Assembly: GCA_003246755.1 (NCBI GenBank)
Contig: QKDC01000174.1
Span: 1 to 61,092, forward strand
Length of the DNA: 61,092 bases
Reading direction: 5' to 3'
Origin: Gemmatimonadota bacterium
GTDB taxonomy: Bacteria > Gemmatimonadota > Gemmatimonadetes > Gemmatimonadales > GWC2-71-9
This document shows positions 9,408-19,180 of this stretch, one piece after another (the first letter of the stretch is position 1; each line of letters begins with the position of its first letter). Under the pieces are notes generated by a model. The model did not search any database and was not told the origin of the DNA. It saw nothing but the letters and a program-made list of their open reading frames with translations. A program made the translations under genes and the position numbers.

Positions 9408-11660
9408 CTACTTGATTCCCACCTTTGTCACAAATTCCCCGTACCGTGGATCCGTGCGGAGTGGTCCGTACATGGGATCCAGGTGCAAGTAGATCAGACC
9501 GGCCGATCTCGTTTGGAGTGCCTTGTCGAGCCAGTCAAAGGCGCGGTCGAGTTCACCCACCCCCGCATAGCCGATGGCCATCATCTCGCCCCGAACATAC
9601 TTGTGGTGTGAATCTTCCTCGAGCCGCTCCAAGATGGCGCGCGCCTCCTCATCTTCTCCCAGGGATGCCAGCGCACACACGATCATGGCATCATGTGACC
9701 GGATCGCCGTATTCAGCGACTGCCCTTTCTGAAGCGTCTTGAGTGCTTCCTCGTTCCGTCCCAGGGCGAGTTGAGCGGACCCCGTGTCGACATACGCCTG
9801 GGAATACAGCGGTTCGAGGTCCAACGCCTTGGAGGCCTGGGTGATCGCTTCCTCGTATCGGCCCGCGAACCCGAGAAATCGCGCGATCCAACGGCTGAAG
9901 GGTGCTGACAACGGATCGAGGACCACCGCTTTCCGCAACTCCTCGATGGCGTCGTCCAATCGGCCCACGCACGGAAGTACGGTCCCGTAGACGAAATGGG
10001 CCTCGGCGTAGTTGGGGTTGTATCGCACTGCGTCCGCCAGGGCCTTCGCGGCTCCAGCGAAATCCCACTCGTACCACGAGAGGACTTTACCAAGCGAGGT
10101 GTGCGCTTCAGCCAGGGTCGGTTCCAGTTGGATCGCCCGGGCAGCCGCGGACTTGGCCCGCGGGTAGGCTTCGGCCGGTGCGACCCAGTTATCGGCAAGA
10201 CTCGCCCAGCAGTCGGCGATTCCCGAGTACACCTTGGCGTACCCGACGTCGATGTCCAGGGCCTCCTCGAAGAAGGCGAGGGCCTTGCGGATGGTGTCCC
10301 CCGACCGATCGACGCTGCCCAGGAACCGACCCTTCAGGTAGAGCGTATAGGCATCGAGATTCTCCGTGGTGGGCTTGACCAGTTGCTGGTTTCCACCGAC
10401 CAATTGGACGTGCAACGCATCGGCGATGGCCTGGGAGATCTCCTCCTGAATGGCAAACACATCTTCGAACTGTCGGTCGTAGACGTGCGACCAGAGCTGA
10501 TACCCGTTCGTCACATCGATGAGTTGGGCCGAAATCCTGATCCGATTCCCGATCTTCCGGACGCTCCCCTCGAGCACCGTCTGCACCCCGAGCTTCTCAC
10601 CGATCTGCCTGATGTCGAGTTCCTTTCCCTTGAACGCGAACGAGGACGTACGTGAAGCCACCTGGACGTCCGGGATCATCGCGAGGGCGTTGAGAATCTC
10701 CTCGGTCATGCCATCGCTGAAGTATTCGTTCTCGGGATCGGCGCTCATGTTGCGGAGGGGAAGCACGGCAATCGACTTCTCCGGGGCGGCCTGGCGTGCG
10801 CTCACACCACCACCCGGCGTTTGGCCGTCTCGTCGGATCGCCCGCAGGAGTTCCGCGAACTCGCCGGCGGTGGGGAAGCGATCGACCGCCGTTCGGGCGA
10901 GCGCCTTGGTGACGGCGGTATCCAACGCATCCGGGATGTCCCGCACCGCCTTCGCATGAGGCACCGGAGACATGAACCGTTTGGCGATGACACCCTGGGC
11001 GGTCGCCGCCGTGTAGGGTTGTTCCCCGGTGAGCATCTCGTAGAGCACGCAAGCGAGGCTGTAGATGTCGCTGCGTCCGTCGACGACGCTTTCGGCGGTC
11101 GCCTGCTCCGGACTCATGTAGGCCGGAGTTCCGACGGCGAGTCCGGTCTGGGTGATGGATCCCCCCATCTCACTCACCGCCTTGCCAATGCCGAAGTCGG
11201 CCACGAGGGCAGCACCCTCGTGCATCAGAATGTTCTCCGGCTTGATATCCCGGTGGATGACACCCTGACGGTGCGCGTAGTCGAGCGCAGAGGCGATCTC
11301 GGAGGTAATCCGGAGGGCATCGTCGAGGGGAAGCATCTTCTCGCGAGTAATCCGGTCCCGCAGGGATTGGCCCTCCATGTTGGGCATCACATAGAACAAC
11401 AGGTCGCCCGCAGATCCCGAGTCGTGGACGGGAAGAATGTGCGGATGGGTGAGTCCGGCGGCGATCCGGATCTCTCGGTGGAAACGATCCGAGCCCATCT
11501 CGCCCGAAATCTCCGGCCGCAGGACTTTGATGGCGACCTTGCGACCATGCCTGATGTCTTCGGCGAGGAAGACCACGGCCATCCCGCCCTCACCGAGTTG
11601 TCGCTCGATGCGGTATCGCGTTCCGAGGCCGTCCTGGAGTTGTTCTTGGAGAGTCGACAC
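9408..11660 (-). CDS. Hanks-type Ser/Thr kinase with TolB-N-like domain and TPR repeats (no TM segment)
   Basis: GEGGMAVV, VAIK, HRDIKPEN, DFG, YMSPEQ, then SIAVLPLRNMS...EYFSDGMTEEI and TPR-like helices. Confidence 0.93.
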   Translation of the reverse strand: MSTLQEQLQDGLGTRYRIERQLGEGGMAVVFLAEDIRHGRKVAIKVLRPEISGEMGSDRFHREIRIAAGLTHPHILPVHDSGSAGDLLFYVMPNMEGQSLRDRITREKMLPLDDALRITSEIASALDYAHRQGVIHRDIKPENILMHEGAALVADFGIGKAVSEMGGSITQTGLAVGTPAYMSPEQATAESVVDGRSDIYSLACVLYEMLTGEQPYTAATAQGVIAKRFMSPVPHAKAVRDIPDALDTAVTKALARTAVDRFPTAGEFAELLRAIRRDGQTPGGGVSARQAAPEKSIAVLPLRNMSADPENEYFSDGMTEEILNALAMIPDVQVASRTSSFAFKGKELDIRQIGEKLGVQTVLEGSVRKIGNRIRISAQLIDVTNGYQLWSHVYDRQFEDVFAIQEEISQAIADALHVQLVGGNQQLVKPTTENLDAYTLYLKGRFLGSVDRSGDTIRKALAFFEEALDIDVGYAKVYSGIADCWASLADNWVAPAEAYPRAKSAAARAIQLEPTLAEAHTSLGKVLSWYEWDFAGAAKALADAVRYNPNYAEAHFVYGTVLPCVGRLDDAIEELRKAVVLDPLSAPFSRWIARFLGFAGRYEEAITQASKALDLEPLYSQAYVDTGSAQLALGRNEEALKTLQKGQSLNTAIRSHDAMIVCALASLGEDEEARAILERLEEDSHHKYVRGEMMAIGYAGVGELDRAFDWLDKALQTRSAGLIYLHLDPMYGPLRTDPRYGEFVTKVGIK

Positions 11661-11666
11661 GCACCA

Positions 11667-11694
11667 ATGATACGCGGCGGCAAGTGCCCGGCAA
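11667..11694 (-). promoter_or_regulatory. Putative leaderless sigma70 promoter of the kinase-UPF0182 unit
   Basis: TTGCCG-N16-TATCAT-N6-GTG with no SD. Confidence 0.45.
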
Positions 11695-11776
11695 GCCCGG
11701 ACTGCCGCGTGGAGTCGTCCCTCGCCCGACTCCTATCCGACTCGGTACCAGGCTTCCCGGCACCACCGGGAGTGGA

Positions 11777-12538
11777 TCAACCGACTCCCCTTGGCCTGCC
11801 TCCTCGCCGAGGGGTGACCACCCTCGGACTCGCGGCCATGAGGAGCGCGGCGAGAGCCTGGAGGCGTTCTCCCCAGAAGACCCTCCGTTCGTCCGCGACC
11901 TCCCGGCTGGGCAACCCGACGTGCTGCACCTGGACGGAGGACTTCGTCGGGCCCTTGGCCATGAAGTAGGCCTGCACCAGGGTGCCGTCCTCCCAGGTAC
12001 AACGAATGGACTTTTCCTTTGATGAGGTTCGGATCGTTGGCTCGTGATCCGGAAGCCACCGCTTCCGGGAGGACTTGGTGCTGAAGGCCTGATAGAGTTC
12101 TCGGATCGGGACAGCGATGGTTTTGCTCTTGTTGACCTCATAGGCGCCGGTTCTCCGCTGTCCTACTTCGCGAAGACCCTTGATGCGCTCGTATCCCACG
12201 GTCACCATTTGCGCCCACCACGGACCCACCTTGTACTTCTCGCCGACCAGTCGCGCGATGTCCCGGTGTGGCAGGTCCATCGCCTTATGCCGGTCGAGCG
12301 CACAAACCCACTTGGCCCAGTCGCAACCCGTTGCCTTCTTCACGGCTTCGTCGGTGTATCCCGCCAAGCGCGCGAAGCTCTCGGGGCTGGGAGGTGTGGC
12401 CGGGCTCTCCACCCCCGAAGAGAGCGAGGCGTTGCGGGGGTTCGAGGTGAGGATACGGGTCCGGGCCGTCGTATAGGCTTCCCCGGTCTTGCGCATGCGC
12501 GCGCGGACCAGGCGTTTGAGGTCTTTCTGACTCGGCAT
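11777..12538 (-). CDS. Hypothetical protein: basic N-terminal module, DUF4287-like helical domain and SRPBCC/AHSA1-like C-terminus
   Basis: Strong SD AAAGGAG before ATG 12538. MPSQKDLKRLVRARMRKTGEAYTTAR, then TDEAVKKATG..W..W, WWAQMVTVGYER, and SKTIAVPIRELYQAF...QH..LP...FWGERL. Confidence 0.75.
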   Translation of the reverse strand: MPSQKDLKRLVRARMRKTGEAYTTARTRILTSNPRNASLSSGVESPATPPSPESFARLAGYTDEAVKKATGCDWAKWVCALDRHKAMDLPHRDIARLVGEKYKVGPWWAQMVTVGYERIKGLREVGQRRTGAYEVNKSKTIAVPIRELYQAFSTKSSRKRWLPDHEPTIRTSSKEKSIRCTWEDGTLVQAYFMAKGPTKSSVQVQHVGLPSREVADERRVFWGERLQALAALLMAASPRVVTPRRGGRPRGVG

Positions 12539-12539
12539 G

Positions 12540-12706
12540 GAGGAATCTCCTTTGGTCAAGCCACGCGCGCACACCCCCCAGCGGCGGCGCCACCTGGCGA
12601 CGCAAAGGACCGTTCGGAATGCCGACCCGGGAGTATGCCCCCCTTTGCCTCACTGGGACCCCTGCTGGGGAGGGATCGAAGAGGTTGGGCGTGGATCAGA
12701 TCGCCA
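12540..12706 (-). ncRNA. Candidate structured, pseudoknotted 5' leader RNA
   Basis: Four complementary pairs on the minus strand: UGGCGAU/GUCGCCA, GCAAAGG/CCUUUGC, CUCCCCAGC/GCUGGGGGG, CCACGC/GCGUGG. It starts at the predicted transcription start. Confidence 0.55.
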
Positions 12707-12711
12707 TCACC

Positions 12712-12740
12712 ATTATGGAGATATATTCGGGGACTTGCAA
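12712..12740 (-). promoter_or_regulatory. sigma70-type promoter
   Basis: TTGCAA-N17-CATAAT. Predicted start site near 12705. Confidence 0.65.
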
Positions 12741-12768
12741 CCCGACCACTCCCTCCCCGGAGGCCCCA

Positions 12769-13356
12769 ATGAGACCTGCAGGAATTCTGGCCCTTTCGGC
12801 CCTTCTCTTCGCGTGCGGTGGTGAAACGCCGGAGGCTGGTGCTGACGATGCCCAGGCGACCGTTGCCGATGCCATGGCTCCCGTCGCGGACATGATACAG
12901 AACTTTCAACCGATGAAGCTCGAGGAGCGCGATGTCGAGCGGTTCATTTCCGTGCTACAGGAATTCGAACGAATGGGTGTGAAACTCAACGAGAACGTCG
13001 GAGAGAACCCCTCAGACATCTCGAGTGTGTTCCAAGGATTGGGCGCCAATGCGGAGGCGATGGCCGTGCTGCGGGACCACGATCTCGACGTGATGAAGTT
13101 TCAGCAGCTGGGTATGTCAGTCATGATGGCCGCGGCGGCTTCGGAGTTGGGAGACCAGTCACCCGACATGGCGGCGGAACAGGCCCGACTCGAAGAGATG
13201 AAGGCCACGCTCCCGCCGGAACAGTACGAGGCGATGATGAGTGCTCGAAAGAACGCCGAAGCGATGATGGTGTCGATCCAGAATCAGCCGGCAGGGAATG
13301 TGGAACTCGTGGCCCGCTATCGCGACCAACTGGAGGCCATCGGGAACAAGCAATGA
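12769..13356 (+). CDS. Hypothetical helical lipoprotein
   Basis: SD GGAGG before ATG 12769 and lipobox LFAC. Met/Glu/Ala-rich. Confidence 0.75.
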   Translation: MRPAGILALSALLFACGGETPEAGADDAQATVADAMAPVADMIQNFQPMKLEERDVERFISVLQEFERMGVKLNENVGENPSDISSVFQGLGANAEAMAVLRDHDLDVMKFQQLGMSVMMAAAASELGDQSPDMAAEQARLEEMKATLPPEQYEAMMSARKNAEAMMVSIQNQPAGNVELVARYRDQLEAIGNKQ

Positions 13357-14124: not shown

Positions 14125-16470
14125 ATGGCCGAGCCGATCGTTCGTCTCAATACTGCGCTCGAAGGCCGCTACATGGTCGAGCGTGAATTGGGCCACGGTG
14201 GCATGGCCACGGTCTACCTGGCAACGGATCTCAAGCACGGACGTCAGGTCGCGCTGAAGGTCCTTCATCCCGAGCTCGCGGCCTCGCTCGGTGCCGATCG
14301 GTTTGCCCGAGAAATAGAGATCGCCGCACGTCTCACGCATCCCCATATCCTGAGCCTGCTCGATTCCGGAGTCGCCGACGGGCTGCTGTTCTACACCATG
14401 CCGTACATCGATGGGGAATCACTGGCCCAACGGCTCGACCGCGAGGGCCAGCTCCCCCTCGACGACGCACTCCAGCTCACCAGCGCGATCGCCGACGCGC
14501 TGGGTCATGCTCACGCGCACGGGGTCATCCACCGCGACATCAAACCCGCGAACATTCTGCTCGCGGACGGTCAGCCCGTCGTCGCTGACTTCGGGATCGC
14601 CAAGGCCATCTCGGAAGCCGGGGCCGAGAAACTCACGGAAACCGGCCTCGCCGTCGGTACCCCGCACTACATGAGCCCCGAACAGGCCGAAGCCACCGGC
14701 CGCATCGACCGCCGAAGCGATGTTTACAGCCTCGCTTGCATGTTCTACCACATGGTGGTGGGCGAACCGCCGTTCACCGGCCCGAGTGCGCAGGCGATCC
14801 TCGCCCGTCACGCGCTCGACCCAGTGGCGCCTGTCTCGACAGTACGTGGAGTGATTCCCCCCTCGGTGGACGTGGTGCTCAGCAAGGCCCTCGCCAAGGC
14901 GCCTGCCGATCGTTATGCCTCAGCAACGGCGTTTGCGACCGCACTGGAAGAAGCGAGTCGGGAGGACCCAACGGTCAAGCGACGACGCTCGACCCTCCAG
15001 CGATCGCTGGCGGGTGCGGCCTTGGTGCTCGTGGTAGCCTTGGGAGGTTGGTGGGCGGTTGCGCGAGGTGACGGTGGACCCAACATCGAGCGACTCGCGG
15101 TCCTCCCGCCCGTCGCCGGGAGTACAACGCCCGACCGGGAACCTGTGGTGCTTGGGATGTACTCCGCCCTGCTCACCGAACTGGGACAGGCCGGTGTCAC
15201 GGTGATCGGCAGCCTCCAATCGATGCAGCGATATCGTACCACGACCATGACGGTGGCAGAGATCGCCGCCGAACTCGGGGTGGATGCGGTCATCGAGCCC
15301 ACTATCTATTGGGCGGGGGACAGTGTGGGGCTGGGGGTCCGCATGATCGACGGCAGGAGCGAGGAGGCACTCTGGTCGCGGTCCTGGGAGGCCGATGCCC
15401 GAAACGTGGTCACTCTCTACCGTCAGGTCACGAGGGGCATCGCCGCTGAGATCCAACTCGCACTCACTCCCTCAGTCGTCAGCCATCTCGCCACGGCTCG
15501 TTCGGTCAACCCCGAAGCCTATGAGGCCTGGCTCCAGGGGAGATTCTATAGCGGCAAGCTGACACCCAGCGATCTCGAGACCGCAACGGAGTACTTCAAT
15601 CTCGCGCTGGAGAAAGATCCTGACTTCGCCCCAGCCTATGCCGGTTTGTCCTGGGTATGGATCGCGAGCCAACAGATGGGCTATGTCTCTCCAGCAGAGG
15701 CGACCCCCAAGGCCGTGGAGGCCGCGAGGCACGCGCTGGCACTCGATAGCTTGCTGGCCGAGGGCCATCATAGCCTAGCAACGGCCGAAGGATGGGCCAG
15801 TTGGGATTGGGAGCGGGGAGAACGGGGCCTCCGCCGCGCCATAGCACTCAACCCGGCGGACGGGGATGCCCGGGCCGACTATTCCCATTTTCTACTCGTC
15901 CTCAAGCGGTTCGAGGAGGCTGAGCGCCAGATCGACAGCGCCCTGGCTCGCGACCCGATGAACCTCAGGTACATCGGGTTCCGTGCGGTCATTTATATGA
16001 ATACCGGTCAGCGTGACAAGGGATTTCAAGAGTTTCGCCGGATGCTCCGAGTTGCGCCCAATCACCCAGTGGCGTTGAGCGTGCTCGCCGACGTGAGTCA
16101 CGAGTTGGGTCGCGAGGACTCAGCGGTCTACTACCAGACCACTGTGCTCGAGTTGACCGGCGAAGCTGAGTTGGCCTCCGTGATCCGAAAGGACTACGAG
16201 GAAGTGGGGTATCGAGAAGCGATGCGTCAGGCTGGGGACTTGTTGGCCCGAGGGGCCCAGGAACGTTTCGTGCCCCCGATGATGGTCGCGAAGCTCTACG
16301 CCCATGCGGGAGACGTGGAGCAGACCCTGCACTGGCTCGAGCGTGGAGTCGAAGGCCGGGAACCCAATCTTCCCTACATCGGGGTGACACCCCTCTTCGA
16401 TTTCGTCAGGGGCGAGCCTCGTTTCAAGGCAATTCTCGAGGCCATGCATCTACCCTGGGTAGACGACTGA
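14125..16470 (+). CDS. Ser/Thr kinase with TM helix, TolB-N-like domain and TPR repeats
   Basis: GHGGMATV, VALK, HRDIKPAN, DFG, YMSPEQ, TM segment LAGAALVLVVALGGWWAV, RLAVLP and TPRs. Confidence 0.92.
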   Translation: MAEPIVRLNTALEGRYMVERELGHGGMATVYLATDLKHGRQVALKVLHPELAASLGADRFAREIEIAARLTHPHILSLLDSGVADGLLFYTMPYIDGESLAQRLDREGQLPLDDALQLTSAIADALGHAHAHGVIHRDIKPANILLADGQPVVADFGIAKAISEAGAEKLTETGLAVGTPHYMSPEQAEATGRIDRRSDVYSLACMFYHMVVGEPPFTGPSAQAILARHALDPVAPVSTVRGVIPPSVDVVLSKALAKAPADRYASATAFATALEEASREDPTVKRRRSTLQRSLAGAALVLVVALGGWWAVARGDGGPNIERLAVLPPVAGSTTPDREPVVLGMYSALLTELGQAGVTVIGSLQSMQRYRTTTMTVAEIAAELGVDAVIEPTIYWAGDSVGLGVRMIDGRSEEALWSRSWEADARNVVTLYRQVTRGIAAEIQLALTPSVVSHLATARSVNPEAYEAWLQGRFYSGKLTPSDLETATEYFNLALEKDPDFAPAYAGLSWVWIASQQMGYVSPAEATPKAVEAARHALALDSLLAEGHHSLATAEGWASWDWERGERGLRRAIALNPADGDARADYSHFLLVLKRFEEAERQIDSALARDPMNLRYIGFRAVIYMNTGQRDKGFQEFRRMLRVAPNHPVALSVLADVSHELGREDSAVYYQTTVLELTGEAELASVIRKDYEEVGYREAMRQAGDLLARGAQERFVPPMMVAKLYAHAGDVEQTLHWLERGVEGREPNLPYIGVTPLFDFVRGEPRFKAILEAMHLPWVDD

Positions 16471-16474
16471 GCGG

Positions 16475-19180
16475 TTACCGGATCGCTTTCAACTCCTCGA
16501 ACCAGTTCTGCACCACGATCAACTCCCCTGCCCCCTGCTCGGCGCCCCGCAGCCGGACCATGATGAAGCGCTGATCGTCCGACGTCACGTCGTACGAACG
16601 GTTTCGGGCTCCAAGGCCACGGTACGCCGTGGTTGGAAACAGGGTCCGTTGGGCTCCGGTGGCGAACGTCGGGCCCGGGAGGACCTCCACCGAATTCATT
16701 GCCGTAGGGCTCCGGTAGAACAACTCCCGCCCACTGTGAGCCCACAGGGGCTGCTCGCCACCACCGGTCGAGATCTGCCACTTGGCGTCGCCCGCGTTCG
16801 GGAAGGGCCGCACGTACACTTCACGCTGCCCCGACTCGTTGGAGCCGTACGCCAGCCATCGTCCGTCTGGCGAAAGCGCCGGATGGAACTCGGGGAATTC
16901 GGTCGTGAGCAACGGGGTCGGCGCGCTATCCTCGCCCGGCCGCATGGCGTACAGGTCACCCCAGTCGCCGGTACCGGGGGCACTTTCGCGAAACACGATC
17001 CAGCGCCCGTCCCGCGAAGTTTCAATTTCCTGGAGGCCCTGGTCGCGGTCGAGCAGCAGCTCCGCCACCGCGCTTCCGTCGGCCCGCTTGGCGTAGAACT
17101 GTTGGTCCCCTTCGTCCCGATTGGACTGGAAGTACACCTCCTGCCCGTCGGGCCGCCATGCGGGCCTGAGGTTGAGGCTGCCTTCGAAGGTGAGTTTGGA
17201 GAGCGGCCCACGATCGAGCTGCTTGACCCAGAGCTGGGTCTCGGCCTCCGACTGAATGCTCACCGCCAACCGTGTGTCATCCGGCGAGAGCGCGAGAGTC
17301 GTGAATCGTCCCGTCCACCCCGGTTCGACCTCGGTTGCGACGCCATCCCTCGTCACCCACACCAACTCGTCCGGGCTCTGGGCCGTGACCCCGGTCGTGT
17401 AGACGAGCGTGCCCGTGGAGGACAGTGCAAGGTCCACGGAGCCTACGAACCGCGTCGAAAGGCCCTCCACGAGGGATACCGCATCACCGGTCAGCTCCAT
17501 CCGGTCCTGGTCGAACGGAGCCGCCATCAGCGTTCCATTCGCCGTCACGTAGACCAGGTGCCCGGACGTGGCATATCGCGCGAGGATGCCCCGGGTGAGG
17601 ATACGGTGTTGCCCTGTGGCTCGGTCGGCCACCGCAACATCCGCCTCCTCGAGGTCTCCTCCGAGGCCACCCCGGCCGACGACGACAAAGAGAACGCCTT
17701 TACCGTTGGGGAGTACCTCCGGCCGTATGTGGCCGCTCTCGTTTTGCGAGGTGTCGATGGTGGTGAACGCGGTTGGCACACCACCGGTGGCGGGCACGGT
17801 CGCGAGTCCATTTGGGCCGCTCAGATAGATGAGCCCATCAGGGCCCCAACTCCCACCGAAGATTTCCACACCGGAGTCCGCGACCGTGAGCGGTGGCCCC
17901 CCACCCAGCGAAACAACCTCCACCCTGGAGGCCCCACCCCGACGCGCGAGGATATACGCCACCCGGCTGCCATCCGGCGAGAAGAACGGCTCACCCGCGC
18001 CTTCGGTGCCGGGCAGGGGCGTCGCTTCGAGCTGGGAGAGCGACCGCAGCCAGAGCTGCTGCTGACCTGCACCATCCCGCGAAGGACCTCGATACACCAG
18101 CCGTGAGCCGTCTGGTGAGATGGCCAGCCGCGAGAGGAAGAAGGGCATGAGCGCCTGGTCATCCGGCATGGCAACGCTGAATCGGGATACCTGCAAGGCC
18201 GGCTCAGGACGCGGACGTAGCCAACCCCACAGGGCCAACAGCCCGAGAACCGCCGCGAGACCAGCGAAGATGCGGGTGCGTTGTTTGGTCCGGCCCGATG
18301 CCTGGTCTGCTGTCGCCGATGGAATGCCAAGGGTAAACGCGGGATTGGAGAGTGCCTCAGAGAATTTCGCCGCACTGGTAAATCGATCGGCCGGGCTCTT
18401 GGCGAGGGACTTCTGAATCGCCGCATCCACGTTCGGCGGGACCATACTGCGCGACCGGGTGATCGGCGTCGGAGTATCGGAGAGGATCCTGGCCACCACG
18501 GCCTGCACACTGGCCCCAATGTGCGGCGGCTCCCCCACCAGCATCTCGTAGGCCATCGCGCCGAGGGCGTAGATGTCGCTCCGGGCATCGAGTGCGCGAT
18601 CGCCGGCCGCCTGCTCCGGACTCATGTAGTGCGGTGTGCCGAGCGAGAGACCGGTTTCGGTGAGCCTGCTTCCCCCCGCTTGGGAGACCGCGAGCGCGAT
18701 ACCGAAGTCGGCGACGAGTGGCTTCCCACGCTGGAGCAGGATGTTCTCGGGTTTGATGTCGCGATGCACGATCCCTTGTTCGTGCGCAAAGTGGAGCGCG
18801 TCGGCGACGTCCTTGACGATGGCAACGGTTTCTTCGACGGGGAGTTGCTTCTCCCGCATCATCCTCCCGCGAAGCGTCTCGTCTTCGACGTACGGCATCA
18901 CGTAGTAGAGGTATTCGGGCGAGGTCCCCGCTTTGCCGCTGTCATAGAGTGGCAGAATGTTCGGGTGCTGGAGATTGGCGGTGACCTTGATCTCGGCGAG
19001 GAATCGATCGCCGCCGACGATGGCGGCCAGTTCCGGGCGAAGGACCTTGACCGCAACTTTGCGATCGTGCTTGAGGTCGTGGGCGAGGTAGACGGTGGCC
19101 ATCCCACCCTCACCTAGGTGTCGCTCGATGCGGTAGGTGTCGGCGAGCGCAGCAGTCAGTCCGGCGATCGGATCGGTCAA
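16475..19180 (-). CDS. Ser/Thr kinase with TM helix and PD40 beta-propellers
   Basis: Intact kinase motifs (HRDIKPEN, DFG), a TM segment, SPDG repeats, and the C-terminus YDVTSDDQRF...VVQNWFEEL. Confidence 0.93.
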   Translation of the reverse strand: MTDPIAGLTAALADTYRIERHLGEGGMATVYLAHDLKHDRKVAVKVLRPELAAIVGGDRFLAEIKVTANLQHPNILPLYDSGKAGTSPEYLYYVMPYVEDETLRGRMMREKQLPVEETVAIVKDVADALHFAHEQGIVHRDIKPENILLQRGKPLVADFGIALAVSQAGGSRLTETGLSLGTPHYMSPEQAAGDRALDARSDIYALGAMAYEMLVGEPPHIGASVQAVVARILSDTPTPITRSRSMVPPNVDAAIQKSLAKSPADRFTSAAKFSEALSNPAFTLGIPSATADQASGRTKQRTRIFAGLAAVLGLLALWGWLRPRPEPALQVSRFSVAMPDDQALMPFFLSRLAISPDGSRLVYRGPSRDGAGQQQLWLRSLSQLEATPLPGTEGAGEPFFSPDGSRVAYILARRGGASRVEVVSLGGGPPLTVADSGVEIFGGSWGPDGLIYLSGPNGLATVPATGGVPTAFTTIDTSQNESGHIRPEVLPNGKGVLFVVVGRGGLGGDLEEADVAVADRATGQHRILTRGILARYATSGHLVYVTANGTLMAAPFDQDRMELTGDAVSLVEGLSTRFVGSVDLALSSTGTLVYTTGVTAQSPDELVWVTRDGVATEVEPGWTGRFTTLALSPDDTRLAVSIQSEAETQLWVKQLDRGPLSKLTFEGSLNLRPAWRPDGQEVYFQSNRDEGDQQFYAKRADGSAVAELLLDRDQGLQEIETSRDGRWIVFRESAPGTGDWGDLYAMRPGEDSAPTPLLTTEFPEFHPALSPDGRWLAYGSNESGQREVYVRPFPNAGDAKWQISTGGGEQPLWAHSGRELFYRSPTAMNSVEVLPGPTFATGAQRTLFPTTAYRGLGARNRSYDVTSDDQRFIMVRLRGAEQGAGELIVVQNWFEELKAIR

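Follow-up and report, generated by a model that had tools for sequence, protein, structure and literature searches.

A widespread double-pseudoknot leader RNA preceding genes whose products begin with a conserved basic peptide

On a Gemmatimonadota contig (QKDC01000174.1), a minus-strand interval flanked by a divergent gene and by a gene of 253 codons (12538-11777) raises the question of whether a structured leader RNA is made there and, if so, what it controls. The window, that is, the whole stretch of DNA analysed, is 61,092 nucleotides long. A sequence-only reading of it had proposed a promoter, four helices, some of them crossing, and two small hairpins, together forming either a pseudoknot or a two-state switch. 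All of these elements lie on the minus strand where they had been placed, as do the Shine-Dalgarno sequence (SD) AAGGAGA at 12552-12546 and the ATG at 12538. We find that the leader RNA is real, widespread and uncatalogued, and comparison of homologous sequences indicates that its conserved double-pseudoknot fold is real as well. The covariance model R2 described below scores this leader at 134 bits, the sole copy in the source genome (3.15 Mb, 96% complete). The elements of this copy are:

12735..12740, minus strand: -35 hexamer TTGCAA of a predicted sigma-70-type promoter (promoter scan)
12712..12717, minus strand: -10 hexamer CATAAT, with +1 predicted at about 12705
12539..12705, minus strand: structured leader RNA of about 167 nt with two pseudoknots (R2 match and covariation)
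12688..12705, minus strand: S1, GGCG 12705-12702 with CGCC 12691-12688, a 5'-end H-type pseudoknot crossing P2; weakest covariation
12624..12697, minus strand: P2, GAUCC 12697-12693 with GGGUC 12628-12624, closing a three-way junction
12648..12684, minus strand: P3, 12684-12679 with 12653-12648; 87% paired
within 12648..12684, minus strand: P4, 12677-12672 with 12662-12657, carrying the first kissing loop; 92% paired
12576..12670, minus strand: kissing loop, CCCCAGC 12670-12664 with GCUGGGG 12582-12576, 7 bp between the P4 and P8 loops
12647-12644, minus strand: unpaired CAAA junction, invariant in 25 protein-first leaders
within 12629..12647, minus strand: P5 hairpin, GGGGG 12643-12639 with CUCCC 12633-12629; 98.6% paired
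12548..12609 (3' arm), minus strand: P6, anti-SD UCCUUUG 12609-12603 with CAAAGGA 12554-12548; 91.5% paired
3' arm, minus strand: GUC/GAC pairing, 12601-12599 with 12557-12555
3' arm, minus strand: P7, 12598-12595 with 12563-12560; 88.9% paired
3' arm, minus strand: P8, CGCC 12586-12583 with GGUG 12575-12572, closing the second kissing loop; 90.1% paired
12546..12552, minus strand: Shine-Dalgarno AAGGAGA, mostly within P6
12443..12538, minus strand: basic helix-turn-helix peptide, codons 1-32 (protein conservation, AlphaFold2)
11777..12538, minus strand: controlled gene, 253 aa, comprising peptide, linker, DUF4287-like domain and SRPBCC/AHSA1 fold

In the 5' domain, P3-P4 and P5 meet at a three-way junction that P2 closes, and the 3' arm is made up of P6, P7 and P8. 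The first four bases of the RNA, GGCG, pair in S1 with an invariant CGCC directly behind the 5' strand of P2. Folded on its own, this copy does no better than its shuffles (z +0.34 and +0.26). It contains five perfect stems of at least 6 bp against 4.3 +/- 2.1 in shuffles (133/300 as high) and three of at least 7 bp against 1.1 (24/300 as high). The RNA is judged real on the strength of its homologues. The conserved fold was derived by reading compensatory changes among relatives; in 25 close relatives it is 97% paired with 16 covarying pairs, and none of 500 shuffles is as good. The helix set of the sequence-only reading is 74.9% paired in the same relatives, a value reached by 150 of 500 shuffles.

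A first model, R1, picked up actinobacterial and acidobacterial leaders, which were then used to train R2. A pattern search on the RNA alone yielded 12 viral and at least 119 metagenome loci, the source of a held-out set; R2 matched 62 places in the first 92 of these loci, among the matches listed. The held-out alignment has 60 distinct rows at about 55% mean identity, including one antisense match and two cut matches. Fitted to the nested helices, and with the columns of the search pattern invariant by construction, it shows eight helices with 92.6% of cells paired and 36 of 45 pairs covarying; none of 500 shuffles, a statistic that ignores kinship, is as good, and slid controls are 42-54% paired. 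Mutual information with average product correction (APC-MI) was computed on 57 rows (mean identity 55%) after the antisense, two cut and two duplicate rows had been dropped, and 21 of the 23 best column pairs out of 14,444 fall inside the structure. Pairs of P4 rank 1, 3, 4, 7 and 8, and two pairs of the kissing loop rank 9 and 11 even though this loop is absent from the model.

The individual helices are consistent with this picture. In the held-out set P2 is 95% paired with double changes at 5/5 pairs, the kissing loop is 97.7% paired with double changes at four of its seven pairs, and every pair of P6, P7 and P8 shows double changes. Without any alignment, a 6-7-nt complement to the P3-P4 segment can be located further downstream in 137/147 leaders; in the control 31 shuffled tails give a 7-mer, the two criteria not being identical, and a few of the matches lie outside the loop. 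A 4-of-4 complement for S1 is present in 140/149 leaders against 14/145 in a control window. Compensatory cases for S1 are L072 and, by eye, L077, and since so few cases covary S1 is the least proven helix. We further note that the Chloroflexota leaders L107 and L109 (1299-1500) have one more hairpin in the 3' arm, with a gain in length of about 30 nt.

These comparisons also sort the pairings that had been proposed from this sequence alone. A pseudoknotted RNA is conserved, as held-out covariation indicates, and its helices are mostly others than those proposed. A check of the four helices for covariation among homologous leaders singles out the fourth; its inner CCCCAGC/GCUGGGG is the 7-bp kissing loop, and the outer two of its nine pairs belong to other stems. 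The remaining three do not covary: UGGCGAU/GUCGCCA is 32% paired in the 25 close relatives, GCAAAGG/CCUUUGC and CCACGC/GCGUGG are 72% paired in the held-out set (411/500 shuffles as high), and pairs of these three helices rank 493 or worse of 14,444 by APC-MI. The GGG-CAUACU-CCC hairpin corresponds to the conserved P5 in a shifted register, and the UCGG-CAUU-CCGA hairpin, 49% paired in the close relatives, has no place in the conserved structure. Nor does the structure end just before the SD as had been supposed, for CCUUUG pairs with the SD itself. This anti-SD:SD helix and the fixed link to an N-terminal peptide were both absent from the earlier model.

The conserved structure thus reaches into the initiation site, P6 covarying with the SD region, and access to the ribosome-binding site is predicted to be blocked by the 3' arm. 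Across 144 leaders the mean computed unpaired probability of the SD is 0.25, against 0.43 when the upstream leader is shuffled, and the SD is less accessible than its own control in 107 of them. Its partner lies 40-59 nt upstream in 124/144, and opening the initiation region costs a median of 12.2 kcal/mol. The hiding is partial in some leaders, with an unpaired probability of at least 0.3 in 51/144. In this copy, with no pseudoknot energy counted, the minimum free energy is -78.0 kcal/mol, helices 2+3+4 of the earlier reading, which form a nested fold lacking the anti-SD:SD helix, reach -73.8, and the conserved nested fold reaches -72.7. Given these near-equal energies, the proposed two-state switch is possible in this copy. 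Family-wide it finds no counterpart: the held-out test reveals no conserved alternative open fold, and forcing the SD open shifts the anti-SD to the AAGG junction in no more than 28/119 leaders.

The proposed promoter, TTGCAA-N17-CATAAT with a start near 12705, is borne out by the homologues. It scores 9/12 matches in a promoter scan that finds two sites in 11600-13000 against 0.1 expected, and a TTG-N16-18-xAxxxT site stands just 5' of S1 in 92/137 leaders (shuffles: mean 2.3, maximum 6). A -10-like site occurs 6-9 nt before S1 in 106/137. As the promoter-like site sits directly ahead of S1, the RNA likely starts at S1, here at about 12705. The divergent ORF (12619-13356, plus strand) was listed from an ATG at 12619 and would run across the RNA; a start at ATG 12769, giving a lipoprotein-type signal peptide, is likelier. 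Only 28 nt then separate that ATG from the -35 box, so the two divergent promoters probably overlap. The product of this ORF has no Pfam match. A second promoter-like site at 11667-11694 (minus strand), ahead of the downstream kinase gene, suggests that the controlled gene is transcribed alone; no terminator-like site was found in a scan of 11600-13000. Beyond the stop codon at 11777 comes a short GC hairpin. Ser/Thr kinases are encoded by three genes no more than 7 kb away (9408-11660, minus; 14125-16470 and 16475-19180, plus), the first two with TPR repeats and the third assigned by eye; the flanks of 25 loci show no such genes conserved beside homologous leaders.

We find that the RNA is tightly associated with one protein feature. 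In the first 92 pattern loci, R2 gave 61 genuine matches, three of them cut by contig ends, and a conserved peptide begins the following gene in 56 of the 58 uncut ones; the 39 loci left over gave 31 matches, two of them cut, with the peptide in 28/29. The total among the matches listed is thus 84/87, two duplicate pairs included. Searching from the peptide side outside the phylum of the source genome, we found the RNA at 43/44 places. The peptide-first genomes number 21/151 in the phylum of the Kitasatospora record, 9/151 in that of the Thermoanaerobaculia record, 1/201 in that of the Rubrivivax record and 4/151 in that of the Anaerolineales record. A whole-genome search with the RNA recovers the same 21/151 actinobacterial genomes as the peptide search, and in the source phylum the RNA is found in 20/150 genomes and the peptide in 19/150. 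These whole-genome counts, with 18 candidates per genome scored, are partly circular as many matches trained R2, and their informative part is that peptide-free genomes hold no intact RNA. A planctomycete phylum outside the training sets gives five RNA matches in 4/121 genomes, four of them with the peptide. Four unpublished genomes (G211, G258, G330 and G384) are in the R1-derived training sets, in alignments A4, A6 and A8 and in the 21/151, 9/151, 43/44, S1, promoter and SD counts, and are not in the held-out alignment A7.

The controlled protein itself is matched in 37/201 genomes of its own phylum, and thirty loci were fetched. The leader stands at the same place in all 25 whose gene starts with the peptide, and five homologues without the peptide (L025, L027, L028, L029 and L031) give no RNA match with either model. 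The Gemmatimonadota loci L059 and L051 have the same leader and gene type. Exceptions to the linkage are mostly decayed relics. At L274 (523-636) the 5' domain has been deleted between two GATC-containing P2 strands and the gene is cut after about 12 codons; L138 has lost the 3' arm and the peptide, and L110 most of the RNA. L228, L265, L313, L316 and the second copy at L077 lack both an intact kissing pair and the peptide. A true exception is L160, where an intact RNA precedes an ORF that lacks the peptide. Since the leader sits almost only before genes that start with the peptide, RNA and peptide likely form a portable self-regulating unit. The correlation between RNA and peptide distances (0.55 overall, 0.25 across different downstream families) was rejected as evidence for co-evolution; it reflects linkage and kinship. 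The damaged second RNA copy of L077 (2582-2774, minus strand) has a promoter-like site of its own and faces the 3' end of a peptide-APH gene.

The peptide always occupies the very N-terminus. K8 and R12 are invariant, and R14, T18, G19, E20, Y22, A25 and R26 are conserved at 95% or more. The invariant residues vary synonymously among several codons, and the constraint therefore acts on the protein and not on the codons. AlphaFold2 models the peptide as a two-helix hairpin (helices 3-18 and 22-32, pLDDT 83), and invariant Lys, Arg and Tyr on such a small predicted fold would be compatible with nucleic-acid binding. Its profile matches 3,019 clusters at 50% identity, yet sixteen peptides gave no Pfam family, and neither NCBIfam nor the PDB supplied one. 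The NCBIfam model perm_prefix_1, matched by 2/35 (best E 0.0028), was not accepted. A PDB sequence search returned nothing credible, and a fold search gave no hit with Z of at least 5 and no Foldseek match at E<=0.001; the lowest-rmsd matches are UBA-like and EF-Ts hairpins, a common geometry. Three unnamed ESM Atlas clusters (scores <=0.80) serve as a lead only. Among 42 candidate longer proteins (444-2000 aa) none matched residues 1-40 at E<=10, which is weak evidence.

What follows the peptide is varied. In the controlled protein, a DUF4287-like helical domain (residues ~52-119; PF14117 is matched on homologues only) precedes an SRPBCC/AHSA1 fold (~133-236), the latter assigned by fold comparison with 3eli (Z 15.7, rmsd 1.6 A over 102 residues). 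Thirty-one products chosen for diversity fall into at least ten unrelated domain architectures. They include DUF4287 with AHSA1, BtrH_N with DUF4872, bifunctional nuclease, DUF1835, APH phosphotransferase, carbon-nitrogen hydrolase, sigma-70 regions, glyoxalase, Clp_N, TPR and unknown domains. A wider set of 114 products forms 15 clusters, some of them truncated singletons, and the non-enzymatic SRPBCC fold is commonest (74/114). At L088 (1501-2406), the RNA precedes a gene that joins the peptide to a sigma-70-like protein (regions 1.2, 2 and 3).

This arrangement invites comparison with systems in which a protein governs its own message. The rpsF leader bound by S6:S18 is an autogenous translational leader of a ribosomal-protein operon (PMC3895269, part of the text), and a comparable class is that of 'protein binding candidate' (PMC11109978, part of the text). 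Like ribosomal-protein leaders, the RNA is a structured 5' UTR before a gene with a nucleic-acid-binding-looking product, with predicted control at the SD, and it shares with autogenous leaders a strict association with the gene of its candidate binding protein (84/87 among the matches listed; 43/44). It differs from ribosomal-protein leaders in that the partner is a 30-residue module on at least ten unrelated domains and not a ribosomal protein or transcription factor, and no Rfam leader model matches. ANTAR is likewise a small helical output domain joined to varied domains, and its actinobacterial RNA targets overlap the ribosome-binding site (PMC8934654 and PMC8164766, both in part). In a fold search with the peptide model over 48,161 chains, four ANTAR proteins place in the top 18, at Z of 4.1-4.6, below significance. 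Membership of ANTAR was rejected: hhalign against 26 ANTAR domains gives 0.17% with 36/60 shuffles as high, and ANTAR (PF03861) is a three-helix bundle whereas the peptide model has two helices and sixteen peptides gave no Pfam match. The conserved Tyr of the peptide is not placed like the ANTAR Phe/Tyr that follows a conserved Ala, represented by Tyr164 in EutV (PMC8934654, in part). The leader shows by eye no dual hexaloop with A1 and G4, unlike ANTAR targets, its P5 loop (G-CAUA or CAUACU in this copy) varying in length across members, and the RNA stands only before the peptide's own gene. ANTAR is an analogy only.

The fold recalls other RNAs as well. In kissing-loop translational riboswitches such as cobalamin, contact between two loops connects a junction domain with the arm that carries the SD. 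The leader has a comparable contact, and unlike the cobalamin riboswitch it has a fixed partner in the peptide, with no Rfam match in 18 diverse members and no common metabolic context. Type III toxin-antitoxin RNAs and Rop/kissing-loop complexes join a pseudoknotted or kissing RNA with a protein encoded beside it, and in type III systems tandem pseudoknot repeats precede a ToxN/CptN/TenpN RNase. The leader likewise has its partner protein encoded next to it. It is a single 160-nt RNA that lacks tandem repeats and contains the SD, its product here has an SRPBCC fold, and none of 31 scanned products belongs to a ToxN-like Pfam family. HDV-like ribozymes have a nested double pseudoknot with P3/L3, P1.1 and a catalytic C in J4/2; the leader does not show this topology, having 0-2 nt between the P2 5' strand and the S1 3' strand and no P5-P2 linker. 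No Rfam ribozyme matches in the window or in the leaders of 18 diverse loci.

We consider an autoregulatory RNA-peptide unit most likely, to judge from the sequence comparisons. We somewhat favour an autogenous operator, in which the peptide of the gene's own product would bind the leader and keep the SD-hiding fold shut. A housekeeping-type promoter would make the mRNA continuously, and the kissing loop would tie the SD-hiding arm to the three-way junction. The CAAA junction and P5 form a candidate protein-binding core, and the peptide may recognise the invariant junction (CGCC-NRA, GG-YRAA-G and P5) and so stabilise the locked fold. A fall in free protein, or engagement of the downstream domain with its ligand or target, would open the arm and let translation resume; in this lineage the upstream CAAAGG could then take over as partner of the anti-SD. 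Together, promoter, RNA and peptide would act as a portable negative-feedback unit grafted onto many unrelated domains. Control in cis is favoured because a single RNA per gene runs into the SD. We infer the binding of peptide to RNA, its site, the direction of repression and the downstream domain as input; adjacency of RNA and peptide in the DNA is no proof of physical contact. More tentatively, and with somewhat less than even confidence, we suggest a plug-in cassette in which a double-pseudoknot leader meets an RNA-binding hairpin of a new family, the two can be joined to nearly any sensor or enzyme domain, and the state of the protein sets translation of a pre-made, locked mRNA. If true, this would be a post-transcriptional one-component system, with switch, sensor and target in one gene, in bacteria and large phages, and a 160-nt RNA with a 30-residue peptide would make a compact translation switch for synthetic biology.

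Other readings explain parts of the same evidence. Because the predicted fold already conceals the SD with no protein present, repression may not be needed, and the peptide might just as well activate. Binding, or ribosome pausing on the first 30 codons, would on that account open the SD arm in a positive-feedback switch, and the closed ground state and strictly N-terminal peptide fit; against it, the peptide is predicted to fold as a compact hairpin and no open fold is conserved, and we think it rather improbable. The closed ground state also leaves room for a standing ribonucleoprotein, in which the leader, whether cleaved from the mRNA or still part of it, would bind the protein by its peptide and thereby restrain or position the downstream domain until stress releases it, loosely like a type III antitoxin RNA. 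An operator could do with less than two pseudoknots and a 5' end that is paired at the predicted +1, the domains found downstream include a nuclease, hydrolases, a phosphotransferase and BtrH_N/DUF4872, and copies occur in viral contigs, two of them of 372 and 497 kb. There is nevertheless one RNA per gene with no tandem repeats, no terminator-like site in 11600-13000, conserved structure extending into the SD, and a non-enzymatic fold as the commonest downstream domain (74/114); we regard this as unlikely, though the least so of the alternatives to autoregulation.

That the leader senses a small molecule or ion as a translational riboswitch, its kissing loop being regulatory and the peptide serving another purpose, seems to us about as improbable as the activator. 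Its invariant junction, SD-hiding arm and kissing loop resemble features of riboswitches, and this copy has near-equal alternative folds. The conserved core and SD arm are present and a conserved alternative fold is not; the peptide accompanies 84/87 RNA-first matches among those listed, and homologues without it also lack the RNA. One shared metabolite is disfavoured because the downstream architectures, at least ten and unrelated, share no common pathway. That promoter, RNA and peptide are a selfish mobile unit, with the RNA as a mobility or catalytic element, would suit the patchy spread (19/150, 21/151, 9/151), the near lack of shared neighbours among 25 loci and the many decayed relics. 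The source genome (G000) holds one copy and others one to three, the RNA type mostly follows the downstream family, no conserved sequence follows the stop codon by eye, and, as the RNA starts at the predicted +1, there is nothing 5' to cleave; this idea is accordingly given very little credence. Chance pairing in GC-rich DNA, which this copy alone, not above its shuffles, might suggest, is refuted by the held-out covariation, and also opposed by the fixed promoter and gene context, leaving it a negligible prospect.

The autoregulatory unit is uncatalogued. Rfam 15 in E-value mode gives two chance-level matches only in 12400-12900, and the window has no match at gathering score, in line with the earlier reading, which had recognised no known class. 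The leaders of 18 diverse loci from other phyla and viruses give no Rfam match either. We found no description of RNA and peptide in the full-text literature, where supplements of motif screens could contain the RNA; a term search for the leader RNA in the main text and one supplement of PMC8632094 gave nothing. The reading frame is open for at least 20 codons upstream of the start in 111/147 leaders, and we infer that this, together with the start set too early in the Rhizobium gene, would conceal the RNA from intergenic screens. Knowledge of the leader also corrects starts that gene callers set within it. A structured RNA class in at least six phyla yet missing from Rfam is rare, and an unnamed 30-residue domain tied to it across unrelated proteins would be a new RNA-protein recognition pair, giving a testable role to the N-termini of 'hypothetical', DUF4287-SRPBCC, BtrH/DUF4872, DUF1835 and nitrilase-family proteins.

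The RNA-peptide pair is present in six phyla and in viral contigs. Its neighbours are not conserved: 50 flanks of 25 loci give only four small groups, with no control gene compared. There was no blastn match in plasmids and no tblastn match in annotated phages, and R2 gave no credible match in 150 Alphaproteobacteria, although Rhizobium plasmids carry RNA and peptide. The peptide is matched in nine Rhizobium plasmid records and one Phyllobacterium record. Two viral contigs, L145 (1978-3257; 497 kb) and L149 (372 kb), have an intact RNA and the peptide on a 370-aa protein without a Pfam family. A third, L148 (1476-2075, minus strand), has by eye a compact variant whose kissing sequence is different and whose peptide has diverged; together with a nuclease-like ORF it forms an insertion amid head genes of the opposite strand. 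On a Streptomyces linear plasmid (L308, 1-3091), a divergent leader, missed by R2 and with its kissing pair visible by eye, and a peptide on a repetitive protein come right after a site-specific integrase gene. Cultured hosts are Nonomuraea gerenzanensis (NZ_LT559118.1) and Rhizobium leguminosarum A1, whose plasmid pRL10 (CP049733.1; L307, 2345-3493) carries the leader and the peptide on a carbon-nitrogen hydrolase gene that is annotated 36 codons too early.
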